32,000 nucleotides of DNA from Candidatus Heimdallarchaeota archaeon (lineage in GTDB: Archaea > Asgardarchaeota > Heimdallarchaeia > Heimdallarchaeales > Kariarchaeaceae): NCBI GenBank assembly GCA_030149205.1, contig JASBSB010000003.1, positions 150,001-182,000 on the forward strand, in the 5' to 3' direction. Of this stretch, positions 1,559-32,000 are shown in pieces (the stretch's first letter is position 1; each line of letters starts with the position of its first letter). The translations under genes and the position numbers were made by a program. Under the pieces are notes generated by a model, which searched no databases, had not been told where the DNA came from, and worked only from the letters and a program-made list of their open reading frames with translations.

Positions 1559-1750
1559 CTTTTGTTTTACAAATGTGCTATAAAATCGTAAAAATGTTCA
1601 ACCATATCTCAATTAATGGTGCACTTCTAAAATATGTATGTTGTTAAAATAGATAGATTAGTTTCTTGTGCTAGAGCTTTTATTCTATTAATGTATAATG
1701 AATTATTGGCTTCTCGAGAGTGGAGAACTTAGTTTATTTTGGTGAAAACA

Positions 1751-3883: not shown

Positions 3884-3893
3884 AGGGATTTAG

Positions 3894-6563
3894 ATGGCAG
3901 TAAGTGAAGAATTTATAAAAGAAATATCAATTACCGATGAGTTAAGGAATGGGTTTGGAGAATATGCAAGGTACGTGATAGAAGACCGAGCACTCCCAGA
4001 TGCTAGAGATGGATTAAAACCTGTTCATCGAAGAATAATTTATGCAATGAATGAGCTTGGTGTAACATACAGGTCTAAGCATAAAAAATGTGCAAGAATT
4101 GTTGGTGAGGTAACAGGAAAATACCATCCCCATGCTGGAGGTACTTATGAAACTCTCGTTAGATTGGGACAGACCTGGTCACTAAGATACCCTCTAGTCG
4201 ATGCTCAAGGAAATTTTGGAAGTATCGATGGTTTTCCACCTGCAGCAATGAGATATACAGAAGCAAGACTCTCCCGTATTGCAGATACATTACTTACAGA
4301 TTTATCACCAAAAGTTGTAAAATATATTGATAATTTTGATGGAGAAGAGACAGAACCAGTTGTTTTACCTGTTCGTGTCCCTCACCTTTTGTTGAACGGG
4401 ACAAAGGGGATAGCAGTTGCAATGTCTTCGAATATTCCCCCACATAATCTTACAGAATTGTTAGATGCTTGTATGGCAATAATTGACAGACCAAGTATTA
4501 CTATCTCTGAGTTGACGGATATTGTAAAAGGCCCAGACTTTCCTACAGGAGGTAAAATCATTGGGACGAAAGGAATTGAAGAGCTATATAGCAAAGGTAA
4601 GGGAAGTTTAACTGTCAGATCAAAAGTCCATGTTGAATCTCCTGACACCCATAAAGTTAGACACACAATGTTAGTGGTCGATGAGATCCCATATTTTGTA
4701 AACAAGGCCTCATTAGTGGAAGAAATTGCAGAACTAATCAACTCGGATAGATTACGAGGTGTTTCAAATGTCAGAGACTTATCTAAAAAGGAAATTAGAA
4801 TAGAAGTTATTTTAGAACCAGGTTATGAAGATGAAGGATCAATTAAGACGATCAAAGCCCAACTATATAAGAAAACACAGCTTCAAACTTATTTTCATGC
4901 AAGGACATTAGCTTTTGTATACGGGAAACCTAGAATATTAAATTTAAAACAGGCATTAGCTGTGTTCTTAGATTTTAGAGATCAAATCATAAAAAGGAGA
5001 GCGGAAGAGGAGCTAGAAAAGGTTTTAGCTAGATTACATGTTCTTGAGGGGTTAATTATTGCCTCCAATAATATCGATGCAATAATAAAGATGATTAGAG
5101 AATCTGAAAGTAGAAGAGATGCCCATGACAACCTTAAGAAAAATTATGGACTTTCAGATATTCAAGCAAAGGCAGTCTTGGATATGACTCTTGCCAGACT
5201 TGCAAAGGTCGAACAAAGTGAACTCTTTAATGAGGCAGAGGACAGAAGATCAAGGGCTGAGTATCTCGAATTAGTTATTACAAACCGAGAAGAACGGCTA
5301 AAAATAATGAAAGAGGAGTTGGAGGATGTAAAAAATAAATATGGGGACAAGAGAAGAACTGAAATTCTTGAATTTGATGAAATAGGACATAAAGGTGAAA
5401 GGTCTCTGCTCCATGAAAGGTCTCTGCTTATTAGCAGTACAAGTCTTGGATATGTACGAACCATAGATTTTGACAAATTTAAAGTTCAGGGAAGAGGAGG
5501 AGTAGGAGTGATAGGTTTACCGCTGAGTGAAGGAGAAAAACTACTAGATCTTGTAATAGCCTCCAACAAAGATGAACTTTTACTTATCACCAGAGAAGGG
5601 TTGGTTCACAAATTACCTGCATTTGAGTTAATTGAAGTCCAAAAAAGAACTCAAAAGGGTAGAAAGCTTCAATCAATAATTCCTGTTACATCTGAGGTTG
5701 TTAAAATTGTTCCAGTACAACACGATGGTTTTACGAGTGATAGAATTTTAGTTACGGTAACCAAAAAAGGAATTATCAAACGAACCACTTTAGACAAGTT
5801 TGGTGGAATTCGAAAAACAGGGATTAAATGTCTTAAATTCAAGTCAGAAGATGATAAAGTCGCTGATGCATTTGTTACTGATGGAGACTCATATATTTTC
5901 ATTGCTACAAAAATGGGTAGTGCAGGTCTCTTTGAGGAAAAAAATGCCAGTCTAACTGGTAGAGTGGCTCAAGGTGTGATTGGATTAAAACTTCGTGAGG
6001 GTGATGAGGTTATTTCTGCTTTTCCAATTTCAAAAGAAGAATTTGAGAATATATCAATTTTGACTGTCACGGTCAAAGGATATGGAAAAAGAACTGAAGC
6101 AACCAAGTATAGAGTGACAAATCGTGGAGTTTTTGGTGTGAGAAATATAAAAATCACCAAGAAAAATAGCTATGCGGTTTCTGCATTGCCAGTACCGATT
6201 TCTGGTGACGACACAACCATATCGTTACTTAACTCATCTGGAAAACTTATCAAAGTTAGTGTTGATGGAATTCGTATCATGGGTAGATCGACACAAGGAG
6301 TTCGCGTTATGAGATTACCACGTGGGGCAACACTAGAATTAGCATCACAAATTGTTGATGAGTCTGGAGTTGATGAATCCGAGGATAGTCCTGAACTACT
6401 TGAAGAAGAGGTGGATGATGAAACCGCTGATGAGTTAGATGATGAAGTGTTAGATGATGATGAAGACTCTGAGGATGAAGAACTTGATGATTCAGAAGAT
6501 GATGATGAAGACCTTGAAGAAGAAGAACCTGAGGACTCAGATGATGATGAGGGTTTTGAGTAG
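3894..6563 (+). CDS. gyrA: DNA gyrase subunit A
   Basis: Motifs RALPDARDGLKPVHRRI, GNFGSIDG, catalytic AAMRYTE, NIPPHNL, GPDFPTG, a GyrA-box-like QGRGGVG, a beta-pinwheel C-terminal domain and an acidic tail. Confidence 0.95.
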   Translation: MAVSEEFIKEISITDELRNGFGEYARYVIEDRALPDARDGLKPVHRRIIYAMNELGVTYRSKHKKCARIVGEVTGKYHPHAGGTYETLVRLGQTWSLRYPLVDAQGNFGSIDGFPPAAMRYTEARLSRIADTLLTDLSPKVVKYIDNFDGEETEPVVLPVRVPHLLLNGTKGIAVAMSSNIPPHNLTELLDACMAIIDRPSITISELTDIVKGPDFPTGGKIIGTKGIEELYSKGKGSLTVRSKVHVESPDTHKVRHTMLVVDEIPYFVNKASLVEEIAELINSDRLRGVSNVRDLSKKEIRIEVILEPGYEDEGSIKTIKAQLYKKTQLQTYFHARTLAFVYGKPRILNLKQALAVFLDFRDQIIKRRAEEELEKVLARLHVLEGLIIASNNIDAIIKMIRESESRRDAHDNLKKNYGLSDIQAKAVLDMTLARLAKVEQSELFNEAEDRRSRAEYLELVITNREERLKIMKEELEDVKNKYGDKRRTEILEFDEIGHKGERSLLHERSLLISSTSLGYVRTIDFDKFKVQGRGGVGVIGLPLSEGEKLLDLVIASNKDELLLITREGLVHKLPAFELIEVQKRTQKGRKLQSIIPVTSEVVKIVPVQHDGFTSDRILVTVTKKGIIKRTTLDKFGGIRKTGIKCLKFKSEDDKVADAFVTDGDSYIFIATKMGSAGLFEEKNASLTGRVAQGVIGLKLREGDEVISAFPISKEEFENISILTVTVKGYGKRTEATKYRVTNRGVFGVRNIKITKKNSYAVSALPVPISGDDTTISLLNSSGKLIKVSVDGIRIMGRSTQGVRVMRLPRGATLELASQIVDESGVDESEDSPELLEEEVDDETADELDDEVLDDDEDSEDEELDDSEDDDEDLEEEEPEDSDDDEGFE
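5396..5428 (+). repeat. Perfect 15-bp direct repeat with 18-nt period inside gyrA (encodes ERSLL-H-ERSLL)
   Basis: TGAAAGGTCTCTGCT at 5396-5410 and 5414-5428. Confidence 0.9.
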
Positions 6564-9089: not shown

Positions 9090-10226
9090 TTATCCTTTGA
9101 TTACTTCCCTTGCAATAACCATTCTCATAACTTCAGAGGTCCCTTCATATATCTCTGTTATTCTAGCATCTCTGTAATACCTCTCAACTTCAAAATCCTT
9201 TAAGAACCCACCGCCACCATGAATTTGGATTGCTTGGTGTGTAACTTTTGTGGATATTTCAGATGCAAAGAGTTTTGCGATGGCTGCTTCTTTAATAAAG
9301 GGTTTTCCCATATCCGCAAGCTTTGCGGCTTCTTGGTACAGGAGACGTGCTGCATGTATTTGTGTTGCCATATCAGCCAATTTGAATTGTATTGCTTGGA
9401 AATAAGACAATGGTTTACCAAATTGAATTCTCTCTTGAGCATACTTTATTGAGTCTTCAAAGGCTGCTTGAGCAATTCCAACAGCTTGAGCTGCAACTGC
9501 AATTCTACCCTTGTCGAGTATAGATAATGCCATTCTCAAACCATCACCTTCTTTAGCTAGCAAATATTCTGAAGGAATCCTAACATTTTCAAAAGACATA
9601 GCACTGGTTACACTGGCCTTTATTCCTAATTTTTTTTCAGGAGGCATTACTGTTATCCCCGGAGTATCTGCAGGAACAATAAATGCTGAGATTCCTTTGC
9701 TCCCCAATTCTGGGTTAGATTTCGCAAAAACGATGAAAACTGTTGCTTCTTTCGCATTTGTGATATAAAACTTAGAGCCATTAATTACCCATTCATCCCC
9801 ATCTCTTACAGCTCGTGTTGATAAGGCACCGGGGTCTGATCCTGCATGAGGTTCTGAGAGACAGAATGCCCCTAACCCTTTTTCTTTGGTGAACCTTGGT
9901 AAAAATTTAGCCTTTTGTTCTTCAGTTCCATATTTCAGTATTGGTCCAATCCCCAAGGAGTTATTCCCGGCAAAAATTGTTGCTGTGGATGCACAACCTC
10001 TTGCGATTTCCTCACAAACTGTTGCATAAGTCAGGGTATCTGCCCCAATTCCCCCATACTTCTCTGGTATTGTCATATAAAGAAACTCTGATTCCCTTAA
10101 TGCTTGGATTGAATCTTCTGGAAAACGTTCTTCATCATCATACACACGTGCTAAGGGTTTAATTTTGTCAGTGACAATATCCCGGATCGTGTTTTTAATC
10201 ATCATTAGATCTTCATCAATTATCAT
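9090..10226 (-). CDS. Acyl-CoA dehydrogenase (short-chain/butyryl-CoA type)
   Basis: Motifs FCLSEPHAGSD, INGSKFYITNA, GRIAVAAQAVG, RIQFGK, QIHGGGG and catalytic IYEGTSE. Confidence 0.93.
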   Translation of the reverse strand: MIIDEDLMMIKNTIRDIVTDKIKPLARVYDDEERFPEDSIQALRESEFLYMTIPEKYGGIGADTLTYATVCEEIARGCASTATIFAGNNSLGIGPILKYGTEEQKAKFLPRFTKEKGLGAFCLSEPHAGSDPGALSTRAVRDGDEWVINGSKFYITNAKEATVFIVFAKSNPELGSKGISAFIVPADTPGITVMPPEKKLGIKASVTSAMSFENVRIPSEYLLAKEGDGLRMALSILDKGRIAVAAQAVGIAQAAFEDSIKYAQERIQFGKPLSYFQAIQFKLADMATQIHAARLLYQEAAKLADMGKPFIKEAAIAKLFASEISTKVTHQAIQIHGGGGFLKDFEVERYYRDARITEIYEGTSEVMRMVIAREVIKG

Positions 10227-18642: not shown

Positions 18643-19017
18643 TTAACTGAGTACTTTTCTCGCTTCCTCAGTTAATGATTTTATGTTCATTTCACGTAGA
18701 CCACTTACTTCCTCTCGGTTTGTGATAACTACCAAATTGTAACTTTCATTGATCTGTCGAACATAAATAAGAATATTTTCCTCCTCAATAAGGACAGACT
18801 TGAGTTTAAAGTTATCTCGTAATAAACTCTTGAGAATTGTGTTTGTGAAATCCATTATTTTTGCGGAAGTACCTTGTACCACCCCGGTGGGAAAGCTACT
18901 TGACACTTCAGCCATAACTAATGCCTGTTTAGAGTCAATTACACTTAAACCTAAGACTCCTTCTGTTCTTTCTTCAAATTTTTTCAATATTCCTTCGAGC
19001 TTTGACCCGATTGACAT
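18643..19017 (-). CDS. Roadblock/LC7 domain protein
   Basis: 124 aa: helix, GVLGLSVIDSKQALVMAE strands, helix, then SVLIEEENILIYVRQINESYNLVVIT strands and a terminal helix. Confidence 0.75.
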   Translation of the reverse strand: MSIGSKLEGILKKFEERTEGVLGLSVIDSKQALVMAEVSSSFPTGVVQGTSAKIMDFTNTILKSLLRDNFKLKSVLIEEENILIYVRQINESYNLVVITNREEVSGLREMNIKSLTEEARKVLS

Positions 19018-19187: not shown

Positions 19188-20579
19188 ATGAGCTATCTCG
19201 AACGTGCAGTATTCGATTTTACTAAATCTGTTCTAACTGATGGGTTTAAAACCCTGTTAACCAAAAAATATCTCCCTTATACTCTAACTGCTCTAGTCAT
19301 TATTGTATTCAACTCCTTGCTCACCTTCTCAGAACTTATAAAATTAAATTTGATCACACCTCAAATTACAAACCTGCTCATTACAGTAGAGATTGCCCTT
19401 GCCACTGCGTTTATTATTGTGGGGCTATTCTTTTCAAGATTAAGCAACCTTATGCAATTAATCATAATATTCATCTCTACTCCAATATTTACCTGGATAT
19501 TCTCAATCCCCTTTGTGTCAGAAAATATATTGAATTACATAGTTGCATTCTATTTTATTGCCTGGTTGATAGTATCATCATTTTCTGAGTTTTCATTCAT
19601 GAGAGATCTACTGGGAAATTACGTGTTTGGAGGGGTTCTCTTCCTTGGTAAACCCAAAGATGATGGTAAACTTCTTTTTGGAGGGATTGTTGCTGTTATC
19701 ACAATTATCAATATTGGTATTGGCTTCTTTTTAGTCACCAGGTACAATAATTCAGTAGGTCTAAGCATTTTAGGATTTTTAATTATGCTAGTTGGGGTAA
19801 TTAATTTGATTCCTTTATTAAATTTACAAAGATCGGGTGATGTATTCTTCACTTCATTAGGATGGTATTACTCTTTAAATGTTATTAGAGCTATAAGCCT
19901 CATCGCCACCTTACTTTTTTTCTCTAACAACGCCACTTCCTCTTCACTTATTAGTACAGCTTTCACACTGTTTCTTGTCCTGTTTGCAGTACATAAAGCG
20001 GCACAATACAGCGTTAAGCTTGGTAAAAAGGTGAGTCTGAAAGATCAACTCTTATTGAATGATGATGCTGGTCGTGAAAAGCGACCTGAGCTTGGGTTAA
20101 TTTATCTGCTCTCAAGACTCTTTAAAGACAGAGGAATCGTCCTGCTCATCTTAGGATTTGTCCTTGGATTTCATACAACACAACTACAAATTCGGCTAAG
20201 AACTGGAACCTTTTTCTCAACCTTTATTTTAACAGAACAAATCAACCCAAATGTCTGGAGTAATCAGATATATCTATACACAGGAATGACCATTTATTTA
20301 TTTATGATAGGATTATTCTTTTTTTCTAAAAGCTTTAGGGACTATGCTAATCCCAGTATTTACAGAGCTGAATGGTTACCACCCTACGAAGATATGAAGG
20401 ACTTAATCTATGGCATTAAACGAGGAGAAGTTGATTATAAAACAAATTTATTGAAGATGACAGGTGGAATGATCAAAGACCAGCTAGGTAAAAAATTACT
20501 TGGAAGAGATACCAAACATGAACAGAGAATCAATAGCACCCTCAAATCTTTGATAAACAAAAGAAAAAATAAAAAATGA
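19188..20579 (+). CDS. Polytopic membrane protein of unknown function
   Basis: 463 aa with roughly 10-12 hydrophobic segments and a basic soluble C-terminus. No family motif recognised. Confidence 0.75.
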   Translation: MSYLERAVFDFTKSVLTDGFKTLLTKKYLPYTLTALVIIVFNSLLTFSELIKLNLITPQITNLLITVEIALATAFIIVGLFFSRLSNLMQLIIIFISTPIFTWIFSIPFVSENILNYIVAFYFIAWLIVSSFSEFSFMRDLLGNYVFGGVLFLGKPKDDGKLLFGGIVAVITIINIGIGFFLVTRYNNSVGLSILGFLIMLVGVINLIPLLNLQRSGDVFFTSLGWYYSLNVIRAISLIATLLFFSNNATSSSLISTAFTLFLVLFAVHKAAQYSVKLGKKVSLKDQLLLNDDAGREKRPELGLIYLLSRLFKDRGIVLLILGFVLGFHTTQLQIRLRTGTFFSTFILTEQINPNVWSNQIYLYTGMTIYLFMIGLFFFSKSFRDYANPSIYRAEWLPPYEDMKDLIYGIKRGEVDYKTNLLKMTGGMIKDQLGKKLLGRDTKHEQRINSTLKSLINKRKNKK

Positions 20580-20622
20580 TATCGGTCAATAATTTAGGGT
20601 TTATAAATATTATGCAACTACA

Positions 20623-20630
20623 TATAAATA
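20623..20630 (+). promoter_or_regulatory. Candidate TATA box
   Basis: TATAAATA ending 22 nt before the ATG at 20653, compatible with a near-leaderless transcript. A second TTTATAAATA lies at 20600-20609. Confidence 0.4.
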
Positions 20631-20652
20631 CCCGTTTTTAAACAATTAGAGT

Positions 20653-21486
20653 ATGTTAAAGTTCCGAATTTTTATCGATAAGAACAATGAAACACATGAA
20701 TCATTTGAGGAAGTGTTTAAGGAATTAAAAGAGACAGTAAACTCTAAAGATTTCACATATGAACTTTATGACATCAATGATGAGAAATCTCGTGATCTTG
20801 CGCTTAAAATTGATATTGATGAAGTGCCTGCATTAGTATTCAATCAGGTTAAAATCAGTGGACAATTAAATGAATATTTCTTACAAGCCTTAATTTCTCA
20901 AGTGTTAGCAATTGAATCAGAGGATCAAAAGATTACCAGTCTCTCATTAGATGGAGAAGAAGGAACTTTGAGACTCAACATAGCATCAAACTTGCTTCTC
21001 AAACAGAGTCAACTCCGAGAAGATACGAAGAGCTTCGTTATGCTGATCCGTGAAACACCGGATAAATTCAATATTCCGACTTTGAAGAACTTAGTCGAAT
21101 CAGGAACAACTATTTTTCTGTTAACAAACTTCAAAAAAGGAAAGAAAAACAAAGAGCTTGCCCAACTAGGGGAAAACCCTAATATTCTTACTGGCCACAT
21201 TATGAGAGACAATATACACATGACAATGAGTGTGACAATACGAAAGAACAGACCGTTTTTCGGTTCATATCTCCGTACTAAACTAAACACCGACAGTAAA
21301 TGGGTTGGTACTTGGTCACCACTCCTTCATGACACTGTAACCGAGCTAAAGAAGTTTTATATTCCTCTGTTCTCCACAGCATCTCCAGTTCAATTAGATG
21401 GAACAATAAATGAGCCAAGAGAAACCAATAGAGTGGTCGCGAAGGTCAAAGACAATATTGAAAGAGTTAAGACCTTGTTCTTTTAA
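20653..21486 (+). CDS. Cysteine-less thioredoxin/glutaredoxin-fold domain fused to an unknown alpha/beta domain
   Basis: The N-terminal ~85 aa show thioredoxin spacing with DEVPALVFN (cis-Pro loop) and ISGQL. There is no Cys anywhere in 277 aa. Confidence 0.6.
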   Translation: MLKFRIFIDKNNETHESFEEVFKELKETVNSKDFTYELYDINDEKSRDLALKIDIDEVPALVFNQVKISGQLNEYFLQALISQVLAIESEDQKITSLSLDGEEGTLRLNIASNLLLKQSQLREDTKSFVMLIRETPDKFNIPTLKNLVESGTTIFLLTNFKKGKKNKELAQLGENPNILTGHIMRDNIHMTMSVTIRKNRPFFGSYLRTKLNTDSKWVGTWSPLLHDTVTELKKFYIPLFSTASPVQLDGTINEPRETNRVVAKVKDNIERVKTLFF

Positions 21487-21571
21487 GAATAAGTAAAAAG
21501 TTATAAAATTTTCATACACCGCTAAATATTAAATAAGTTTATATTGCAAATCACACCCAATAGTATAGAGA

Positions 21572-21934
21572 ATGAATATTTTTGATGAGCTTCATATATT
21601 GGAGAAACTCAAGAGTGAAACTAATACAACAATTTTCATGAGTACATTTGATAAAGATGACACACTTTCTGCGTTGATGCACGAAACAATCTTATCATTT
21701 GATTCATGTGCTCAAATTTTAGAAACAAATTTTGAAGATCCAGAATTACATCTTACAAGAATTCTACTTGAAATCTCACGAATAGAGGCATTACTCAGAG
21801 CCTTTGTTGATCAGGTGGAATATTATTTGCAAATTGTTGAAGGAAAGCCCGATAAGTCAAAACTGTTCGATAGTGTCACAAAATTCATTAATCATTCATT
21901 TATAATTCTTGAGAAAATTGTAGTTGTAATTTAA
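21572..21934 (+). CDS. Hypothetical alpha-helical protein
   Basis: 120 aa ORF with ATG start filling the available space. No motif recognised. Confidence 0.6.
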   Translation: MNIFDELHILEKLKSETNTTIFMSTFDKDDTLSALMHETILSFDSCAQILETNFEDPELHLTRILLEISRIEALLRAFVDQVEYYLQIVEGKPDKSKLFDSVTKFINHSFIILEKIVVVI

Positions 21935-22413
21935 TAAACTGACAATTTAGAATTTTGAGAGTTGGGGAGAAGTCTTTTCAGAGCTAGTTGCCATTTCATT
22001 TGTATAAGATTGACCATATCAAAATACATAGATGAATCAGCAATTCCCAAAATTTGTGGTGGAGAAAATTTGGATAAGGTTAATTCTAGAGTGACATCTA
22101 TCTTTTTATTTCCAAAAGGTACTCGTACTAGAGCTGTTATTCCATCTATCACAGAAATATCTCCAAGAATTTCTACGATATTATCAAATAAAGAGTGAAA
22201 ATTCACATTGTGAGAGTCGCTTACCTCGATGATAATCATAGAATTAATGTATTTTCCAGTTACCCTGGAATCATTAAAAGTTTCAGTCAACTTTCCAGTG
22301 AAATCTTCATCAACCCCTAATAGATCTACTTGGACTGTTATTATCTCCCCGATCGATGAAAGTAGCTCGATCTCATACACAATACCATCGATTTGTTGCT
22401 TTATTGTTTTCAT
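21931..22413 (-). CDS. Hypothetical protein
   Basis: 160 aa ORF sharing a TTAA stop overlap with its convergent neighbour. No motif recognised. Confidence 0.6.
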   Translation of the reverse strand: MKTIKQQIDGIVYEIELLSSIGEIITVQVDLLGVDEDFTGKLTETFNDSRVTGKYINSMIIIEVSDSHNVNFHSLFDNIVEILGDISVIDGITALVRVPFGNKKIDVTLELTLSKFSPPQILGIADSSMYFDMVNLIQMKWQLALKRLLPNSQNSKLSVY

Positions 22414-22904: not shown

Positions 22905-23438
22905 GTGAATAATCATTGGAAAAGGGAGGGACAAAAACAGGTTTCATTTTGGATAGATCTAGATTTAGAAGAGAAAATTCAGGAGTTTATCTCTGAGAAC
23001 CATATGACCAGATCAGGGTTTATCATTGCCGCCATTGAGGAATATCTAAAACCGGGATCAGACATTAAGTCACCTGGGTTGATCAAAGAAATGACTGAAA
23101 TAAAGCTGATGATTGAGGGATTGATTAGCTCAAAAAAGGCGCTTATACCACCAAAAACCTTCATCTCAGAAGAGTCTCATGAGAACATTGAATTCCCTGA
23201 AAGGCTAAACTCATATCTTAGGAACGCTAATCTGCAACCTTCACAAAAGAACCCTGTGAAGGAGACATTATTAGCAATTTTAAATTTCAATGGAAGTGCG
23301 ACTTCAGATCAAATTGCAACATTTAGAGGATTAAAAAGACCTGAGTCCATCAGAAGACAAATTGCTAAGTTAGTGAATGATGGAATTGTGGTTAAAGACA
23401 CATCAACAGTTCCCTTCAGGTATACCATAAAACAGTAA
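22905..23438 (+). CDS. DNA-binding protein: N-terminal ribbon-helix-helix (CopG-like) plus C-terminal winged HTH
   Basis: KQVSFWIDLDLEEKIQEFISENHMTRSGFIIAAIEEYL is a beta-helix-helix pattern with the T/S-R-S turn. ETLLAILNFNGSATSDQIATFRGLKRPESIRRQIAKLVNDGIVVKD...RYTI is a wHTH pattern. Confidence 0.75.
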   Translation: MNNHWKREGQKQVSFWIDLDLEEKIQEFISENHMTRSGFIIAAIEEYLKPGSDIKSPGLIKEMTEIKLMIEGLISSKKALIPPKTFISEESHENIEFPERLNSYLRNANLQPSQKNPVKETLLAILNFNGSATSDQIATFRGLKRPESIRRQIAKLVNDGIVVKDTSTVPFRYTIKQ

Positions 23439-23498
23439 ACTTATCAGTTGGCTTTGTTAGTATTCATAGAGTTAATATCTGTTAATCTATTGAAAACC

Positions 23499-23927
23499 AT
23501 GCCTTGGGAATATTTAGAAGAAGAAGCCATAGCCGATATCGGTATAAAAGTAACTTCAACTGAGCTAAACACCCTTTTTGAAGACTCAGTATTGTCTATT
23601 TGTAACCTGATGACAGACCTTAAGACATTCAATGCGGATCTTGAGAAAACTGAAAATTTTGAGGATAAATCTGTTGAAATGCTGTTGTATCAGGTATTAG
23701 AAGAAGTGGTGTATTTAAAGGACGCTGAGCTGTTTTTTGTAAAATCTAACAAAGTTAGAGTCTCCCCAGACAACGACCACTTCATCGCGACTGTTACATT
23801 TGTAGGTGGAAGATTTGATCCCTCGATACATGAAATTGGAAACGATATCAAGGCAATTACATTACATGATTTTTATGTAAAGAACACTAAAGATGGATTT
23901 GAGGCACATTTTATTATTGATATCTAG
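23499..23927 (+). CDS. Archease (RtcB tRNA ligase cofactor family)
   Basis: MPWEYLEEEAIADIGI at the N-terminus and DIKAITLH...AHFIIDI at the C-terminus. The ATG at 23499 fits the family length (142 aa) better than the upstream start. Confidence 0.88.
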   Translation: MPWEYLEEEAIADIGIKVTSTELNTLFEDSVLSICNLMTDLKTFNADLEKTENFEDKSVEMLLYQVLEEVVYLKDAELFFVKSNKVRVSPDNDHFIATVTFVGGRFDPSIHEIGNDIKAITLHDFYVKNTKDGFEAHFIIDI

Positions 23928-24715
23928 TCTTGGAATGTAACTTTTTCAATATCACTAGGAAGTGCGACAGAGTTGAATCCACCATCAACGAAAATAGTTT
24001 GACCAGAAATTCCAGAGCTTAAATCACTTAATAGGAACACTGCGGCCTTCCCAACATCATCCTGATAAACATTTCTTCTGAGGGGGGCCGTATGTTTCAT
24101 GAACCCTAGAATATTATCAAATCCGGGAACATGACTTGCAGCTAATGTTTTTATCGGTCCAGATGAAATAGCATTAATTCTGTGACCCGCAGTCCCTATA
24201 TCGTTTGAAAGTTCTCTCACAAAAGATTCTAATGCTGCCTTTGCAACACCCATTAACCGATATCCTGGTACAACACGTGTCGATCCCAGATATGTAAGGG
24301 TAATTATACTGCTGTTAGGATTTAATTTGCGAAGGCTATGTCTAACAATTCGCTGCAAAGAATATGCAGATATTGTTAACGCTGTATTAAAATCCGCTTC
24401 TGAGGTATATATTAAAGGTTTTTCAAGAGCTGAAGCGGGTGCGTAGCCTATGGCGTGAACAATCATATCGAATTTTCCCTCTAAGGAATTAAAAAAGTCC
24501 CGAACTTGCTCTTCATAGGCAACATCACATTCAGACATGTTTTCAACGAAATCAACATCTTTTGTTAAACCGTACAACCTTGATCTAAATCGTGTTTGAT
24601 ATGAGAGGGTAATTTTAGCCCCAGCTTTTGCAAGCCATTTACAGATCGCCCACGCGATACTATCTTCTGATGCCACTCCAAAAACAATGGCTCTTTTTCC
24701 TGTTAAATCAATCAT
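23924..24715 (-). CDS. fabI: Enoyl-[acyl-carrier-protein] reductase (NADH), FabI type
   Basis: Motifs GVASEDSIAWAI, VHAIGYAP, ISAYSL, catalytic Y-x6-K (YRLMGVAK), NAISSGPIKTLAA and VDGG. ATG at 24715, with GGAGG 9 nt upstream on the minus strand. Confidence 0.93.
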   Translation of the reverse strand: MIDLTGKRAIVFGVASEDSIAWAICKWLAKAGAKITLSYQTRFRSRLYGLTKDVDFVENMSECDVAYEEQVRDFFNSLEGKFDMIVHAIGYAPASALEKPLIYTSEADFNTALTISAYSLQRIVRHSLRKLNPNSSIITLTYLGSTRVVPGYRLMGVAKAALESFVRELSNDIGTAGHRINAISSGPIKTLAASHVPGFDNILGFMKHTAPLRRNVYQDDVGKAAVFLLSDLSSGISGQTIFVDGGFNSVALPSDIEKVTFQD

Positions 24716-27700
24716 TTTTTGTTTCCTCCATAATTGCCAATGACATGGCCCATTTATCATTTACTGAAGATTTCACAAGTATTTTGCTATCTCCAATTAA
24801 AACACTATATTTATGTGTTGAATGTCCATTTTGGACTTTGGTACTTTTTAATTTAGCTTTTAATCCTGTACCTTTAGCCTTCATTGCACTTTCCTTTATA
24901 CTCCAAAGCTGAGTTATAATTTGAATTTTTTCAGGTTCGATAGAAAATTCCTCAATTTCATTTTTTGTAAATGCTGTTTTAATGAAACTTTTATCCCTCT
25001 CTTCTACTTTCTCAAGGTCGAATCCTAAGTTAAGATACTCATCAGAAACAGCAATTGCATATCCATTAGAATGAGAGATTGTCACAGGAAAATCAACACC
25101 TTGATAAACCCCCTTAGGTTTACCCATCTCATCCTTGACTATTTCTATTTCATCCTCTGGAAGGTTAAATTTGATAGATATTGCTCTCTTAGCTGCAATC
25201 TGACCTGCGCTCCATTCCATTCTTCTTTTTTTGACTTTTAACCTGCTGTATAGAACTTTCCCAGCCTTCGTAAAATAGCTATCAAGAACATCTTCATTGA
25301 TATCCTCAAGAACCTTTGTTGAGAGCACCACACCATTTTCACTTAGTTTGTATAACTGATGTTCTAACAGAGCCACCTCAATTTCATCTTCTGATATTTT
25401 AAGTGAATGAGTAACTGGACTTTTCCCAGTGTGAATCATTTCAAATTCTCTTAATTCACAAACGAGTTCTAACTTTTCATTAAAGGCATAAACATTATAT
25501 AAACTAGTCATTGAGTTTTCTGCTAAAAATATTGCAAACACATAGGTCGCAGGAAGATCTGAAGTGTAATGTTGAACTTTTCGGACTTTGGAAGGAAGTG
25601 ACATTACCCCCTTTTGCAATAACCCATAAAGACCAGCTGTCTGAAAGCAGGCTTCAATAAGCAGAGGTTGAAACGAAACCTTTGCATCTTGATTATTAAA
25701 GAGGGTTCCTGTATCAGTGTCAATTTTGGTAAGAATTGAATTCTCAGAGAGAGATGCAACAAAATCAATCACTTGATATTTTGGTCCATGAAAAAATAGA
25801 TCATAGATTTGGGCTTTCTGCATCAGAATACCCTCTTGTGAGATCAGGGAGTTCATTTCTTCGGGAAAATACCTCATTGCAGGTAGACTTTTCCCCTCAA
25901 TTACACCTACACGAAAATGATCTCTAAGATCTCCAAGCTGTTTTCCATCTGGGCCAATGAATTTTGACTTAAGGTGGAGATGAGTCACTCCCATCAATTC
26001 ATTGCTTTCTTCTGGTATCACAAATACCTCAAGTGGTTGATCCCTAGGTAGTTTAATTGGGGACTCAAATGAAACATCAACTAATGATCGGGGTATCCCA
26101 TCAAACCTTTGAACAAATTCAATTATGGTTTCTAAACCCATCACACCAGGGAGAACCGCTTTATCATCAATACGATGATGATCCAAATACAAATCTCGGC
26201 TGAGGGAAAGGAGTCGACCCGCATATGGAATTCCACCTTCAATTGAATAGAAATCTATCATTGGATATTCTGAGTCAACCTCAGATTTTGAGGAGATAGT
26301 TGACGGAATTTCAAACTTTGCTGATTGTTCATTTTTGTTATTGCCTACTGAACCTCTTTTACTGGAAATTTCCTCGTTTACTTCAACTCCTTCTATTGAA
26401 TCCTGTCTATCATGTTTGGCCAAATGACCTTTCTTAATTGGAGTGTTTTCTAGTAATTTTCCTAATTCACCACTTATAACCACCTCAGTCTCATTTCCAT
26501 AAAAAAATTCATCAAGAAATCTCTTGACACCTTCTTGTGGAGAGATTGGAGTTACACCAGCCATCGAAAGTACTGTCATGGTTGAACCTCTAGTAGCCAT
26601 TCCAACCTCGCTCCACGCTGACCAATCGATGGCGGTGGATTCAATACCTCTTGACCTTAGTTTATCACTGGTTTTTGTTAGATACTCGTTTGCGGCAGAG
26701 TAATCAACCTGTGTGGCATTTCCAAACCGTCCAGCAACTGAGGTAAACAGAATAACTCTATCGGTATCTTCTGTGATAAAAGGTTCTATTGATTGATACC
26801 CTAAAACCTTGGTGTTGTAGACTAAGGAGAACTCATCCTTTGATTTTTGTTTGGTGGGACGAGAGATTTCAATTCCTGCACCATGGATCACGATGTTAAA
26901 ATGATCTATATCAAGTTCATTCATATTTACCTTAATTGCTTCTCTGACTTCGTCTTGATTTGTAATGTCACAAGAGATGTACAATACACTTGCTCCGCTC
27001 TCTTGGTATTTTTTCATTGATTTATACACATTTGCTGATTTTATGAATTTTGAATATTCGTTTTCAAGTAATACAGGCGTAACTTTATCATTTTTAGATT
27101 TAAGTTTTTGAAGAAGATCAGATTTAAATTTTTTAAGCTGTTCTGAATCATAGGTTGAAAGGTCTTCTGCGTTTGAGAGGACTTTAGTTCTTCCAATAAC
27201 AATGATCTTTGGATTTTTGAAGCGTTTAATTAGGTTAGAGGTTGTTTCAAACGTGATCCCTTGGGCACCACCAGTCACTAAGAGTGTTGGAGATTCAGGT
27301 AGTTTTATACTCTCTGGAGAGAGATCCCCATTTTCTAACAGTGCGGTTGCTTTAGCAGATTGTGTTGAGACAAGTATCTCTGTTAAATCATGGTTAAGGT
27401 ACTGTAAAGCCGTCTTTATATCATCTGAGACAATTATGCTTCCCTTAAGTTTTGAAAATTCAGCCTTTAATGCTTTAAGCATTCCACCAATTGCCCCTTC
27501 TAAGGGAGAGATTTTATTTATAGAATCTGTCTCTGAATTTATTGAAATAAGATTAAGAGACAAAATATCATCTATATCATTCTTAATTCTATCAAAAAAT
27601 GAGGGGATATCTGTTATGAGATTTTCATCAATATTTAACAAAACCAGATTTTTTGGAAGTGAATTTGGAATACTGTTGATCAAATTTAATTCTGATATTC

Positions 27701-30700
27701 CTTCTCCGTTATGTGCTAAAAACGTGAATACTGAAAGATCCAGATTTGTGGGGGTAATATCAACAGTGTCTAGAGTAAATCTCTTACTCTTAGGAATACT
27801 TTCAGACTTTGAACTGTAAGCATCTCTAATATTATCTAACAGGTTGCCTACAGTTAAGCCAGTTTCTATTTTGGTTAACTTTAAGTCAAATAAGGTTGAT
27901 AGACGATTGAACAGAGTTTCAATATCTGGCTCTGTCAGTCCTAAATCAGTTCTTAGGTTAAGCTTTAAATCAAGAAGTTCAGGTGGGTAACCAGTTATCT
28001 CTATAATTAACCCTAAGGTTTTGGATTTAATTTCCTCTGCGAAATCTAAGCTAGTGTCCTTTTTGGTATTTTGAGAATGTACAATGGTTTGATTTTGTTT
28101 TTCAATAACTTTCGAACCCTGTAAATTGTCCTTAACAAATTGAGTTACCTTTCTAATTGTACTGTATTGACTTATATCTAAGTCCTCAATCAACGGAATT
28201 CCAAATTTTTCTCGGATTACACCAATTAATTCTGCTTGTTTGACTGTATCTATTCCAAGGTCTGCCTCCATATCTAAATCTGGCTCTAACATGGTTTCAG
28301 GATACCCTGTTTTCTCAGACACTATATTGGTCACGGTGCTTAGCACTTCATCTGCTGAGATAGGTGTACTTATATCACTCTTCACCTCAGGGCTTTTACT
28401 CATATTTTTATCTTGTTCAATTTGATTGTGTTCAGTAATTTTTGAGGCTTCTGTGGTGTTTTCGATAACAAATTCAGCGACCCTGTTAATAGTATTATAT
28501 TGACTTATATCAAGGTCTTCGATCAATGGTATCCCAAAATTGTCTCGGATTACTCCAATAAGTTCAGCTTGTTTCACTGTATCTATGCCTAGGTCAGCTT
28601 CCATATCCAGGTCTGGTTCAAGCATTTCAACTGGATAACCAGTTTTCTCAGCAACAATCTGAATAACTTGACTCAATATGTCTTCATTTACAGAACTTCT
28701 GAGATTCTTTTTCTTGGTTTTAGCACCTGGCCCTTCTACAATGACATTTACGGTCTCCTCAGTAGGACGTTCTGTGTTTGATTTTACAAACTCAGATATT
28801 TTTTGTATCGTGTTGTATTGTGAGATATCAAGGTCATCAATTAAGGGAATTCCGAACTCCTCTCTAATTATGCCAATGAGTTCAGCTTGTTTCACTGTAT
28901 CTATACCAAGATCAGCTTCCATATCAAGATCTGGCTCTAGCATCTCGACTGGATAACCAGTTTGTTCTGAAACCCTTTCTATTATTCGATTAAGTATTTT
29001 TGAATCTGTTAAACTTGCTTGGTGTTGATCAATTGGTTTAGAACTTGAGGCAGTGGGATTTATCATTGATTGATCTTTACTTATTTGTTCAATCACAAAT
29101 TCTGAAATTTTTTTAATTGTATTATATTCAGAAAGGTCGAGGTCTTCTAATAGGGGAATTTCAAAACTCTCTCTGATTATTCCAAATAATTCAGCCTGTT
29201 TAACTGTATCAATGCCTAAGTCTGCCTCCATATCAAGTTCGGGATCTAACATTTCTTTAGGATAGCCTGTTTTCTCAGCAACAATTTCTAAAACTCTCAT
29301 TAACACTTCAGGAGATGAAGAATTTTGTTTATTTGCTTGACCTTGAGTTTTAATAGAAGTAGTCTTAGTGGAAGATGAGTTCTTAGAAAGATCCATTTTG
29401 CTTAATTGTCGATTAGGAGAGGTGGATAGAGGCTTTAACAATTCGAGGATTTTTTGAACCGTGAATTCTTCATCAGATAAATTTTTTAATGTACTTTCAT
29501 CAATGTACGCAATAAAGTCTTCTTTTCTCATTCCAATTTCAGTTATTAAATTTAGTGAGTTGGTTAACAATTCCGGAGGATATCCAGTGACCATTGAAAG
29601 AATACCTAGTGGAGTTTTTGGCTCATTTACTTCATGTTTGATTGTATTTGAAACTGTCAAACTTTTCGGAAGTTTGGATACTTTAGGATCAACTGGAGTT
29701 TCCCTTGTGCTTATGACTGTTTCTTGAAAAGAGCCAATTGATGGGTTTTCTTTTACTCTGAGTGTCTTTCCAACCTCAATGAGGTCTTCTTCGGATGACC
29801 CTATGGATTTAAGCCATTTTCCATATAGCATTGTCTTTCGAGATCCATAGCTTGCTTTTTTGTATAAGACAAATGCCAGTTGTGAACCGAAACCAGCGGC
29901 TAACCGAATCGCATAAGTTATATCATGCTTTTGTCCATCACCAAACTTTAAATTTCCAAGAGCTGGATCAGGTTGTTTTAGATTTGCAATTGGTGGGACA
30001 ACTCCAAATTCTAAAGTTTTTAATGCAATTGCATCTTCAATCCCAGCACCCATAGGATGTCCGGTAAATCCTTTTGTGTTAGTTATAAAAATATTTTGAG
30101 CATGATCCCCAAAAACGTGTCTTAAGGATTCGATCTCTGCAGCTGCACTACCACCTCTTGCGGGGGTGTAGGTCTCATGACTCATAAAAATACAAGACTC
30201 AGAAATCTCTTCAGGAGTTAATGCGTGTTCTGCTGTTACTTTCTTAAAAAAGTACTCAAATTCAGAAGAGATATGAGTCACATCAAGCCTAGTTCCATGA
30301 AATGCTGAGTTTGCATAGTGAGAGCTTAGGATTTGAGCTATAGGGGCAATGCCTCTTCTTTTAGCTTCTTCCTCGGTTTCAATTACCAAACCAACAGCAC
30401 CCATTCCCACGATCATGCCATGCCTTCTCTCATCAAAAGGCAGTGCTGCTTTTGTAACGTCTCCCTCGGTTGTAGCTGCTCCAGAGGATAAAAATCCTGA
30501 ACCTATCCAGGGGAACAGATGATCACTCGTGACATTGTCAGAACCAATAATTATTACTCGTTTACATCTCCCGTTTCGTATCCAGTCTTGAGCGATTCCA
30601 ACAGCCTGAGTTGTGGATGCACACGCAGCATTCACCTGAGTGTTTGGACCTCTGGCTTTGATGAGTTGTGCAAATTGAGAATGACCCATTGATAAAATTC

Positions 30701-32000
30701 TGAAGAGAAACTTTCGATTGAATATATACTCAGGTGTATTAGATTCAAGCTCTTCTAATATATTTTCAATGAATTCTATTATTCTCTCCTTGTCCTCAGA
30801 ATCTTTTAGTTTTCGATGAATTTCAGAGTATATTATACGTGTTAATGTTTTTTCATCATCAGATTTTTTCCACTTGTAATACCGTGTGAGTTCATCTACC
30901 AGACTATCAAACCCAGGAAATGCCGAAGCAAAAATTACGCCTGTATCATCTTGTAACTCTTTGGGTAATACCCAATCACCTGGGAGGTAACTTCCAGTTG
31001 TAGTTTTGACGTATTCTCTCTGAAGTGGGATGTAAGCATCCTTAAGGGCTTCAAGGCCTGCTGCAATCGCAAGTTTTGTTGATGAATCATAGGTTTCAAT
31101 TAATTTTTCTGCTAACTGAAATTCTGCCACTAAATCAAATTTTCCGGGTTGTGCAGCTAATTTAATGACATCAGACCGCTTGTTGATTTTGTCTAGGGTT
31201 GGGCTCCCCTTGTCTCTTTTTACTAATTTGACTATGTTTTTGTCAGTTTGTTCATCTAAAGCGACCTCTGATAATTGATCAATGAGGTTTTCTCCCCTAA
31301 ATATTCTTTGGATATTTTTTGAATCAAAGATTTCTTTGTATTTACCCGGAAGACCTACCCCTGTACCTGTAACTACAATATTATCAAGGTTTATACCCAT
31401 TCGACTAATTTTATCTGAAAGCTTAAGGGAGGATTCTTGCTTAAACCTGTTAAAACTCTCTTCTACAAACTTGTTAAGTAAGTCACCTTGGAACTGCAAG
31501 TAAGACTTAAACATAGGGTCATATTTTGCATCTGCTGTGATATAATTATCTGAATTAAAACTGTGTTGAATTTCACCTTGAAACTCATCTTTGGTTAAGG
31601 CAGTACGAATTTGAGGTGAAATCTCCTTTACTTGAGGAGTTTTTGTAAATTTGTTGGAGTATGAAAAGTGGGATAATGTTGGTGTGGCTACCTTAACATC
31701 ATAAATACTCTTGTCAATCAAATTTCCTTCAATGGATGGCTTGATCACCATTTTCCCAGCAGCAAACAATCCGGCTAATGCCTCATTGAGTTGCTTGGTT
31801 TCTCCCTTCTTGGGATGAACTGTTATTAAAGTTAGTGAGTTCTCATCTGAAAGTATTGTTTCCACAAAGCTAGATAAAGCTCTTTTTGGTCCGACTTCAA
31901 CAAAGATTCTCCCACCATTTTTATATAAATTATTAATTTGTTGAACCCATTCTACCGCAGATTCAACTTGTTTCTCCAGTAGAGATCTTATCTTCTCAGG
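24708..32000 (-). CDS. Type I PKS/FAS megasynthase, 5'-truncated: AT(end)-KS-ACP repeats-KR-DH-PPTase
   Basis: The frame is open from base 32000 (PEKIRSLLEKQVESAVEWVQQINNLYKNGGRIFVEVGPKRAL, the end of an AT domain), so the GTG at 31865 is not the start. KS triad NAACAS / SHETYT / GHPMG. Four LGIDTVKQAE repeats. KR motifs VTGGAQGI and YSAAN. DH motif LDHHRIDDKAVLPG. PPTase motifs SHS, GFDLE and WSIKESAMKAKGTGL. Confidence 0.95.
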   Translation of the reverse strand, partial: PEKIRSLLEKQVESAVEWVQQINNLYKNGGRIFVEVGPKRALSSFVETILSDENSLTLITVHPKKGETKQLNEALAGLFAAGKMVIKPSIEGNLIDKSIYDVKVATPTLSHFSYSNKFTKTPQVKEISPQIRTALTKDEFQGEIQHSFNSDNYITADAKYDPMFKSYLQFQGDLLNKFVEESFNRFKQESSLKLSDKISRMGINLDNIVVTGTGVGLPGKYKEIFDSKNIQRIFRGENLIDQLSEVALDEQTDKNIVKLVKRDKGSPTLDKINKRSDVIKLAAQPGKFDLVAEFQLAEKLIETYDSSTKLAIAAGLEALKDAYIPLQREYVKTTTGSYLPGDWVLPKELQDDTGVIFASAFPGFDSLVDELTRYYKWKKSDDEKTLTRIIYSEIHRKLKDSEDKERIIEFIENILEELESNTPEYIFNRKFLFRILSMGHSQFAQLIKARGPNTQVNAACASTTQAVGIAQDWIRNGRCKRVIIIGSDNVTSDHLFPWIGSGFLSSGAATTEGDVTKAALPFDERRHGMIVGMGAVGLVIETEEEAKRRGIAPIAQILSSHYANSAFHGTRLDVTHISSEFEYFFKKVTAEHALTPEEISESCIFMSHETYTPARGGSAAAEIESLRHVFGDHAQNIFITNTKGFTGHPMGAGIEDAIALKTLEFGVVPPIANLKQPDPALGNLKFGDGQKHDITYAIRLAAGFGSQLAFVLYKKASYGSRKTMLYGKWLKSIGSSEEDLIEVGKTLRVKENPSIGSFQETVISTRETPVDPKVSKLPKSLTVSNTIKHEVNEPKTPLGILSMVTGYPPELLTNSLNLITEIGMRKEDFIAYIDESTLKNLSDEEFTVQKILELLKPLSTSPNRQLSKMDLSKNSSSTKTTSIKTQGQANKQNSSSPEVLMRVLEIVAEKTGYPKEMLDPELDMEADLGIDTVKQAELFGIIRESFEIPLLEDLDLSEYNTIKKISEFVIEQISKDQSMINPTASSSKPIDQHQASLTDSKILNRIIERVSEQTGYPVEMLEPDLDMEADLGIDTVKQAELIGIIREEFGIPLIDDLDISQYNTIQKISEFVKSNTERPTEETVNVIVEGPGAKTKKKNLRSSVNEDILSQVIQIVAEKTGYPVEMLEPDLDMEADLGIDTVKQAELIGVIRDNFGIPLIEDLDISQYNTINRVAEFVIENTTEASKITEHNQIEQDKNMSKSPEVKSDISTPISADEVLSTVTNIVSEKTGYPETMLEPDLDMEADLGIDTVKQAELIGVIREKFGIPLIEDLDISQYSTIRKVTQFVKDNLQGSKVIEKQNQTIVHSQNTKKDTSLDFAEEIKSKTLGLIIEITGYPPELLDLKLNLRTDLGLTEPDIETLFNRLSTLFDLKLTKIETGLTVGNLLDNIRDAYSSKSESIPKSKRFTLDTVDITPTNLDLSVFTFLAHNGEGISELNLINSIPNSLPKNLVLLNIDENLITDIPSFFDRIKNDIDDILSLNLISINSETDSINKISPLEGAIGGMLKALKAEFSKLKGSIIVSDDIKTALQYLNHDLTEILVSTQSAKATALLENGDLSPESIKLPESPTLLVTGGAQGITFETTSNLIKRFKNPKIIVIGRTKVLSNAEDLSTYDSEQLKKFKSDLLQKLKSKNDKVTPVLLENEYSKFIKSANVYKSMKKYQESGASVLYISCDITNQDEVREAIKVNMNELDIDHFNIVIHGAGIEISRPTKQKSKDEFSLVYNTKVLGYQSIEPFITEDTDRVILFTSVAGRFGNATQVDYSAANEYLTKTSDKLRSRGIESTAIDWSAWSEVGMATRGSTMTVLSMAGVTPISPQEGVKRFLDEFFYGNETEVVISGELGKLLENTPIKKGHLAKHDRQDSIEGVEVNEEISSKRGSVGNNKNEQSAKFEIPSTISSKSEVDSEYPMIDFYSIEGGIPYAGRLLSLSRDLYLDHHRIDDKAVLPGVMGLETIIEFVQRFDGIPRSLVDVSFESPIKLPRDQPLEVFVIPEESNELMGVTHLHLKSKFIGPDGKQLGDLRDHFRVGVIEGKSLPAMRYFPEEMNSLISQEGILMQKAQIYDLFFHGPKYQVIDFVASLSENSILTKIDTDTGTLFNNQDAKVSFQPLLIEACFQTAGLYGLLQKGVMSLPSKVRKVQHYTSDLPATYVFAIFLAENSMTSLYNVYAFNEKLELVCELREFEMIHTGKSPVTHSLKISEDEIEVALLEHQLYKLSENGVVLSTKVLEDINEDVLDSYFTKAGKVLYSRLKVKKRRMEWSAGQIAAKRAISIKFNLPEDEIEIVKDEMGKPKGVYQGVDFPVTISHSNGYAIAVSDEYLNLGFDLEKVEERDKSFIKTAFTKNEIEEFSIEPEKIQIITQLWSIKESAMKAKGTGLKAKLKSTKVQNGHSTHKYSVLIGDSKILVKSSVNDKWAMSLAIMEETKND
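28130..29307 (-). repeat. Four tandem ACP-coding repeats
   Basis: The core TGYP..ML.P.LDMEADLGIDTVKQAEL.G.IR..F.IPL..DLD.S.Y.TI repeats four times. Thr codons at 29207, 28898, 28580 and 28247 give spacings of 103, 106 and 111 aa. Confidence 0.95.

Follow-up and report, generated by a model that had tools for sequence, protein, structure and literature searches.

The window analysed here, 32,000 nucleotides of the Candidatus (Ca.) Heimdallarchaeota archaeon assembly GCA_030149205.1, spans positions 150001-182000 within a 473,709-bp contig (JASBSB010000003.1) and contains the 3' part of a megasynthase gene followed by fabI, a gene for a putative enoyl-acyl carrier protein (ACP) reductase. Together with genes just upstream of the window, the two form an operon that very probably encodes a native, intact, conserved, iterative and self-priming type I synthase, of fatty-acid/polyketide type, belonging to the Heimdall group of Asgard archaea. 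Judged from its sequence, a Heimdall-group archaeon thus appears to carry stably a complete and intact carrier-protein-based machinery for making long acyl chains, which archaea generally are said to lack.

Archaea build isoprenoid-ether lipids and are thought to be devoid of ACP-dependent fatty-acid synthesis, and the origin of the bacterial-type acyl-ester membranes of eukaryotes, of which the Heimdall-group Asgard are close archaeal relatives, is a long-standing open problem. The openly available Asgard papers that we read report bacterial-type ester-lipid genes, naming no fatty-acid source and not discussing the synthase, and our literature searches that paired Heimdallarchaeota with acyl carrier protein returned nothing. 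The operon is self-contained and order-wide, would combine malonyl-CoA supply, a full reducing cycle and self-priming, and stands beside a PlsY gene in sister families, which makes it a candidate for such a source.

Architecture of the synthase, its carriers and its operon

The megasynthase is encoded on the minus strand, where the open frame runs from the window edge at 32000 to a stop codon at 24708-24710. Retrieval of the upstream sequence showed that the gene continues for ~2.5 kb past the edge, to window-equivalent position 34544/34553 (L001:1708-11553), and has a length of 3,281 codons when read from a TTG and of 3,278 when read from the recorded ATG; the 3,278-aa protein on record for the 473,709-bp contig is the same protein. 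No inactivating lesion was found in the added sequence, and the whole ~9.8-kb frame is intact with every catalytic motif retained. Domain calls with Pfam and NCBIfam profiles yield the order KS1-AT-KS2-(ACP-like)-ACP x4-(ACP-like)-KR-DH-Sfp-type PPTase (KS, ketosynthase; AT, acyltransferase; KR, ketoreductase; DH, dehydratase; PPTase, phosphopantetheinyl transferase; Table 1). An earlier reading of the window from its letters alone (the original prediction) had proposed AT-KS-(ACP)n-KR-DH-PPTase, an order that holds within the window but is a truncated view of a gene that begins with KS1-AT beyond it.

Table 1. Features of the operon and its flank, in positions of the 32,000-nucleotide window
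Feature	Positions	Strand	Basis
Megasynthase gene, C-terminal 2,430 codons	24708..32000	-	Open frame
AT, C-terminal end	31827..32000	-	Pfam Acyl_transf_1, residues 611-909 of the full protein, E 2e-46
KS2, FabF-like ketosynthase (residues ~1055-1575)	29829..31391	-	Cys1311, His1459, His1499 intact
Degenerate ACP-like domain 1	29394..29636	-	Aligns to the four carriers via a TGYP...L core; lacks the DLGID[TS] acceptor motif
Four tandem acyl carrier domains	28104..29321	-	Pfam PP-binding (PF00550), four stretches, 113 bits
Degenerate ACP-like domain 2	27789..28040	-	DLGLTEPD, acceptor missing
KR, catalytic subdomain	26607..27287	-	Pfam KR, 95.5 bits
DH, PKS-type double-hotdog	25437..26210	-	Pfam PKS_DH_N, 30 bits, over cut-off
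PPTase, C-terminal Sfp-type	24711..25286	-	Pfam ACPS, 42 bits
fabI, putative trans-acting enoyl-ACP reductase, 263 aa	23924..24715	-	Pfam adh_short_C2, 233 bits over the full model
Archease	23448..23927	+	Pfam Archease, 98.7 bits; flanking host gene outside the operon

KS1 (residues 26-437) opens a KS-AT didomain of the type I polyketide synthase (PKS) kind beyond the window edge, for which KS-ATs of modular PKSs, CurL among them, are the best matches of solved structure, and the AT motifs GHSLG, VRGKAM and AAFHS lie just past that edge. The Cys-His-His triad of KS2 falls exactly where the original prediction had placed it, with its codons at 30621-30623, 30177-30179 and 30057-30059. The N-terminal half of KS2 is divergent, and the nearest structures, those of FabF, match its C-terminal ~280 residues alone. 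Since Cys, His and His are invariant across 26 aligned family members, KS2 is, on its sequence, an active ketosynthase rather than a chain-length factor. The catalytic residues of KR and DH had also been read as intact, and both are: KR displays the NADPH motif TGGAQGIT, the Ser of FTSVAG and the Tyr of YSAAN (26700-26702), and DH displays an H-x3-D-x4-P motif (HRIDDKAVLP, His at 26175-26177) and a second motif, EACFQ. In an alignment of 142 residues with Bacillus subtilis Sfp (1QR0), the C-terminal PPTase shares the motifs GKP, ISHS, G-x-D-x-E and W-S-x-K-E-S, and in the host's protein the last two read GFDLEK and WSIKES.

Each of the four carriers reads DLGIDTVKQAEL (DLGIDT; D-T-V), with threonine at the phosphopantetheine-acceptor position (codons 29208-10, 28899-901, 28581-83 and 28248-50). 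The tandem carriers had been recognised in the original prediction, which overlooked that their acceptor motif is D-T instead of D-S. The carriers match solved ACPs, the threonine aligning with the acceptor serine of their DS motif, and the conserved serine of PP-binding domains (D-S-L/I) is found in none of the four. A tandem-repeat finder scored no repeat in the array, so the carriers have diverged at the DNA level and a repeat collapse is unlikely. These four are the sole PP-binding domains of the host genome.

Threonine is the rule in the family: among the best 120 homologues, from archaea and bacteria, the acceptor position is occupied by Thr in 376 carriers and by Ser in 14. Three close Heimdall/Kari-type homologues have Ser throughout, proteins of Ca. 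Heimdallarchaeum combine DS and DT carriers in one chain (DLGIDSI, DLGIDTV, DLGVDSI), and the same Thr motif occurs in a cultured bacterium, Planobispora takensis NBRC 109077. That Ser and Thr interchange, and that a dedicated PPTase is always present, suggests the carrier threonine as the site of phosphopantetheine attachment. No description of threonine-linked phosphopantetheine was found in the literature searched, and if the residue is modified the accepted chemistry of phosphopantetheinyl transferases would need extending.

The fabI gene that the original prediction had noted behind the synthase starts with an ATG at 24715 and overlaps the synthase stop by 8 nt in ATGATTGA; its protein is recorded in the 263-aa form. 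Its product bears a Y-x9-Y-x6-K motif (TYLGS...PGYRLMGVAK), whose Tyr, Tyr and Lys we take to be those of Escherichia coli FabI. The nearest named relatives of this protein are from Heimdall-group archaea and, outside the lineage, from Thermoplasmatota and Marine Group II. Upstream of the synthase, beyond the window and on its strand, come genes for a PccB/MmdA-type carboxyltransferase (CT), a biotin carboxyl carrier protein (BCCP), a biotin carboxylase (BC) and a 316-aa KSIII-like protein, and then rtcB, so that the operon is larger by an acyl-CoA carboxylase and the KSIII-like gene than had been visible.

The original prediction had seen no release enzyme in the window. There is indeed no thioesterase among the domains of the operon; the product of the KSIII-like gene, just outside the window, is a candidate acyltransferase. 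C110, S238, H269 and D274 of this protein are invariant in 16 orthologues. Compared with canonical FabH, the Cys is kept, Ser stands at the position of the FabH His and His at that of the FabH Asn, and the Cys-His-Asn triad of β-ketoacyl-ACP synthase III (KAS III, FabH) is therefore not found. Its segment PHMGTND aligns with GHVGAGD of CerJ, which puts H269 and D274 at the same H-x4-D spacing (weak alignments, E 0.004-0.007). The KSIII-like acyltransferases ChlB3 and CerJ have a documented Cys-His-Asp triad (PMC9573744), and the operon's protein resembles them (PDB 3S3L, 7EQI) in its thiolase/KAS III fold and in this triad, although its sequence similarity to them is very weak. Canonical FabH structures are better overall matches than CerJ/ChlB3, and a protein-atlas look-up returned generic KAS III-like clusters alone. 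The 27 known homologues come, where the source is named, from Heimdall-group archaea except for one labelled Methanobacteriota. We regard a role in acyl transfer to or from the carriers as a lead rather than a finding.

The host genome also contains a free-standing, 496-aa paralogue of KS2 (C8:519455-520942, L101:7455-8942; minus strand) that is 44% identical, keeps Cys-His-His, lacks a ~41-aa insert and has an ABC-2 transporter pair as well as a DUF3179 gene for neighbours. Comparable free-standing copies of 537-561 aa are present in several genomes of the order. As the genome has no free ACP, this paralogue may act in trans on the carriers of the synthase.

Host, distribution and relatives of the synthase

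The host is an Asgard archaeon, as the original prediction had supposed. Its 3.31-Mb genome (12 contigs, ~35% G+C, estimated completeness 93.5% and contamination 2.8%) contains an archaeal small-subunit (16S) rRNA and belongs to the same order as Ca. Heimdallarchaeum aukensis (CP084166). The KS2 row of one genome of the same genus is identical to that of a metagenome-assembled genome (MAG) named Ca. Heimdallarchaeota, and the closest named synthase homologues carry the labels Kariarchaeaceae or Heimdallarchaeota. The assignment relies on this genome-level kinship with named Asgard genomes: the original prediction had also cited Asgard-signature genes next to the operon, yet Pfam detected no eukaryote-signature domain among the other genes of the window, including the open reading frames (ORFs) at 18.6-23.4 kb. 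Its claim of contiguity with host genes stands as regards archease.

A reading of the locus as bacterial contamination of the MAG, or as a chimeric join in it, has some initial appeal, as the assembly is in 12 contigs with some estimated contamination and the synthase family is commonest in bacteria. Contig integrity was judged from composition and from junctions conserved in other assemblies. The operon sits mid-contig, at ~174-189 kb of 474 kb, on a contig that also encodes archease, RtcB, Cgi121 and a TFIIB-type zinc ribbon, and the tetranucleotide distance of the synthase ranks at the 61st percentile among 10-kb windows of the genome, a typical value. In the host's genus archease and rtcB bracket the operon; the gene order SBP-rtcB-KSIII-BC-BCCP-CT-synthase-fabI-archease is identical in the two same-genus genomes examined, which were independently assembled, and the junctions at both operon ends, the archease flank included, are conserved in both. 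With orthologues in two closed Ca. Heimdallarchaeum chromosomes and a KS2 tree in which the Asgard copies group together (see below), the locus is native, a chimera is effectively excluded and we consider contamination extremely improbable.

It is likewise highly improbable that the gene is a decaying relic, or that its carriers are dead and no chain is made. Such a reading could invoke the replacement of the canonical Ser by Thr in all four carriers, and the gene of the closed Ca. H. aukensis chromosome (CP084166, 479000-498999), in which the orthologue is broken into two frames (1,506 and 2,653 aa), as against a single one of 3,515 aa in a sister genome. Against it, the host's frame and catalytic motifs are all kept, Thr prevails throughout the family, Ser and Thr carriers are mixed in one Heimdallarchaeum protein and the dedicated PPTase domain is retained. 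Moreover, between members of the genus the ~3,200-codon frame is still open at a nonsynonymous divergence (dN) of 0.23 with synonymous sites saturated; this saturation, seen in every pair tested, means that no dN/dS ratio is given.

A phylum-wide sample of 301 Asgard genomes was searched for the synthase KS2, and 51 of them have it. Within the order it is detected in all 13 genera and in all 8 high-quality genomes, and 32 of the 41 close relatives have it; two closed Ca. Heimdallarchaeum chromosomes are among the positives. The positives are concentrated in the host's order, in one further family of its class and in parts of two other families; three large Asgard families have none (0/21, 0/76 and 0/19). 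Outside Asgard the family accounts for at least 3,683 clusters of the candidates that were scored and occurs in at least 577 species genomes, mainly of Chloroflexota, Acidobacteriota, Actinomycetota and Myxococcota and also of Thermoplasmatota archaea. In a quick maximum-likelihood tree of 92 KS2 rows, all 17 Asgard rows fall together (SH-aLRT 91) next to a Thermoplasmatota group (SH-aLRT 90), and both groups stand apart from a 64-row bacterial clade (support 100). As this tree is unrooted and its sampling biased towards the query, it gives no direction of transfer between the domains.

In other Asgard families, including Ca. Heimdallarchaeum, the KS-AT-KS-ACPn-KR-DH-PPTase core is orthologous, has a carboxyltransferase gene directly upstream and falls into the same Asgard group of the KS2 tree as that of the host. 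These synthases carry a fused N-terminal enoyl reductase (ER) of the FMN type (NMO/PfaD-like), whereas the host's family has a separate FabI, and most of the loci examined have an alpha/beta hydrolase gene after the synthase and a biotin ligase gene upstream. FabI is present in 9 of the 11 genomes of the host's family versus none of 30 in the other families of the order, and the KSIII-like gene is distributed likewise (9/11 versus 0/30 elsewhere in the order). Conversely, a tblastn search with the other-Asgard query gave no match to the NMO-type ER in the host genome, and for the synthase-linked hydrolase tblastn returned no close homologue there, with two weak matches at 26-27% identity. The KSIII-like protein may thus replace the missing hydrolase as the release step. 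FabI plus KSIII-like protein on one side and fused FMN-type ER plus alpha/beta hydrolase on the other amount to a natural experiment in module swapping within one family.

The closest known architecture is that of the Type R secondary lipid synthases, described as KS-MAT-'CLF'-ACP3-6-KR (MAT, malonyl-type acyltransferase; CLF, chain-length factor) with a downstream PPTase gene in Ca. Koribacter, Ca. Solibacter, Elusimicrobium and Roseiflexus, with an acetyl-CoA carboxylase gene linked to the Koribacter copy (Shulse and Allen 2011, PLoS One 6:e20146, PMC3098273). The host's synthase shares with them a single giant PfaA-like protein, a second KS-like domain between MAT and the 3-6 carriers, KR and a dedicated PPTase, although its PPTase is fused at the C-terminus rather than encoded by a separate gene. 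KS2 is ~50% identical to relatives from Korobacteraceae, Bryobacteraceae, Chloroflexota and Elusimicrobia MAGs in the same tree, which does not include the type strains of Shulse and Allen. By architecture, the family matches Type R, a known but uncharacterised kind, for which we found no later characterisation in the literature. It differs in that the synthase is archaeal, a PKS-type DH is called and the 'CLF' has the Cys-His-His of an active ketosynthase, and in that the operon adds a translationally coupled FabI, a three-subunit carboxylase and the KSIII-like Cys-His-Asp protein. The 2011 description makes no mention of threonine carriers (PMC3098273). What sets the locus apart is the archaeal host, the fused and putatively self-priming PPTase, the FabI ER predicted to act in trans, the KSIII-like candidate acyltransferase and the threonine carriers.

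The original prediction had instead named PfaA and the enediyne synthase PKSE as closest architectures, and the synthase belongs to neither kind. Like PfaA (TIGR02813), the synthase unites KS-MAT, tandem carriers, KR and PKS-type DH in one iterative protein, and TIGR02813 is the best NCBIfam match of its carrier array; the synthase scores 447 bits, however, where the model's cut-off is 1,010, with the carrier array alone as the best stretch, and the host's protein differs in its second KS in the same chain and its Thr carriers. Partners PfaB, PfaC and PfaD are missing and there is no FabA-type dehydratase/isomerase, the neighbours being carboxylase subunits, the KSIII-like gene, fabI, rtcB and archease, so that polyunsaturation is not expected. 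PKSE is also an iterative type I synthase with a PKS-type DH and a C-terminally fused Sfp-type PPTase, but it has one KS and one carrier where the host's synthase has two KS, four carriers and a coupled FabI, and no enediyne model is among the top NCBIfam matches. PKSE relies on a hotdog thioesterase of its own, and its product is a conjugated polyene formed with no enoyl-reduction step.

Proposed route and fate of the acyl chain

The original prediction had foreseen a complete elongation cycle with self-priming, and residues predicted to catalyse condensation, acyl transfer, ketoreduction, dehydration, enoyl reduction and priming are all in place. We propose that the synthase's own C-terminal Sfp-type PPTase would first arm the carriers with phosphopantetheine, apparently on threonine, while the co-transcribed biotin carboxylase, BCCP and carboxyltransferase would supply malonyl-CoA. 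The AT, with its malonyl-type AAFH motif, would load malonate onto the four tandem carriers, and the chain would be extended by two ketosynthases, the PKS-type KS1 and the FabF-like KS2. KR and the PKS-type DH would process each beta-keto group, and the translationally coupled FabI would reduce the enoyl intermediate in trans. The cycle is predicted to yield a long, largely saturated acyl chain, and the KSIII-like Cys-His-Asp (H-x4-D) protein is the best candidate for moving acyl groups onto or off the carriers, the operon having no thioesterase.

Several observations weigh against this scheme. The PS-DH model scores 16.6 bits on the DH, under its cut-off, and the DH has Asp at the Gly of the canonical HxxxGxxxxP. 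FabI reaches ~240 bits with its best NCBIfam model, below all equivalog cut-offs (299-477), which points to a divergent FabI clade. The carboxyltransferase, being of PccB/MmdA type, could act on propionyl-CoA or another acyl-CoA. The role given to the KSIII-like protein depends on three aligned residues within the weak alignments described above. To our knowledge, finally, a threonine at the acceptor site has no precedent, and priming of the carriers is an assumption.

The host genome encodes enzymes that could use an acyl chain in glycerolipids. A PlsY (146 bits) and three PlsC-type acyltransferases are detected, neither of which occurs in any of four control archaea; the single PlsY gene is on another contig than the synthase (C4:500894-502469; L102:3894-5469). 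It converges on a gene for a 299-aa alpha/beta hydrolase and overlaps that gene's end; this hydrolase is not a close homologue of the synthase-linked hydrolase of the other Asgard families. PlsX was not found in the host genome or in five relatives, three of them closed. The search for GpsA gave weak matches to the N-terminal Rossmann part, to which we attach no interpretation, and on the archaeal side there are a G1PDH-like Fe-ADH_2 match of 120 bits and a weak GGGPS match. Across the phylum PlsY accompanies the synthase in 47 of 51 positive genomes versus 69 of 250 negative ones, a comparison in which shared ancestry is a strong confounder. In Ca. Heimdallarchaeum a PlsY paralogue stands beside the cluster, with the biotin-ligase gene alone between them. 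This context is compatible with a membrane-glycerolipid fate of the chain, without showing such a fate. Within the window, 14 kb from the synthase, an acyl-CoA dehydrogenase gene (9090-10226, minus strand) suggests a capacity for beta-oxidation.

Two destinations of the chain have to be compared. It may be a specialised ('secondary') lipid or reduced polyketide for envelope, storage or signalling, esterified by the KSIII-like acyltransferase to a non-glycerol acceptor rather than serving as bulk membrane acyl, a reading to which we give nearly an even chance. The match to the Type R architecture points this way, as do the wide spread of the family through bacterial phyla (at least 577 species genomes), the PKS-type DH and tandem carriers, which are typical of polyunsaturated fatty acid and glycolipid synthases, the patchy distribution over the phylum (51/301) and the provenance of CerJ/ChlB3-type enzymes, which are known from secondary metabolism. 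Bacteria that bear the synthase would as a rule also have an ordinary type II fatty-acid synthase. PlsX, which would be needed to feed PlsY from acyl-ACP, is moreover not found in the host or its closed relatives. A near-universal presence in the order (13/13 genera) looks more like core metabolism, however, and the PlsY paralogue and biotin ligase beside the Ca. Heimdallarchaeum cluster also sit uneasily with a specialised product. That PlsY paralogue is one of the arguments for the other destination, in which the synthase would be the de novo fatty-acid source for ester-linked or mixed membrane glycerolipids of Heimdall-group Asgard, made through PlsY and PlsC-type acyltransferases. The strong PlsY and three PlsC-type matches of the host, absent from the control archaea, the phylogenetically confounded co-occurrence of PlsY with the synthase, the lack of any other acyl carrier in the host genome and the reported Asgard ester-lipid genes with no named fatty-acid source all favour it. 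We nevertheless hold it to be rather unlikely. The missing PlsX, closed genomes included, and the location of the host PlsY on another contig count against it, and archaeal ether-lipid genes, G1PDH-like and GGGPS, are apparently present. The only Asgard lipid data that we know of, from cultured Lokiarchaeia, show ether lipids. In Ca. Heimdallarchaeum, Wu et al. report the second acyltransferase to be missing.

A more specific proposal, which we regard as unlikely but worth stating, is that Heimdall-group Asgard make acyl chains de novo from malonyl-CoA on Thr-phosphopantetheine carriers and pass them, without PlsX, to PlsY and PlsC-type acyltransferases for ester-linked or mixed membrane lipids. 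If true, such a PlsX-free Thr-carrier route would be an endogenous archaeal path across the 'lipid divide'.

Other genes of the window and its surroundings

The RNA ligase gene rtcB (L001:16400-17842) is parted from that of its activator archease by ~15 kb of lipid genes. Beside archease, a 177-aa ORF at 22905-23438 (plus strand) has a weak N-terminal match to the aCcr1 family (30 bits versus a cut-off of 60), whose members regulate the archaeal cell cycle; in both same-genus genomes examined, an ORF with 34-36% identity occupies the corresponding place. Several ORFs within 19188-22413 have no family match, one of them encoding a multi-pass membrane protein, and a 124-aa ORF at 18643-19017 (minus strand) looks Roadblock/LC7-like by eye, with no Pfam or NCBIfam match at E 0.001. 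Farther away, gyrB and gyrA lie in tandem at 1739-6563 (plus strand) and encode a bacterial-type DNA gyrase on this archaeal contig.

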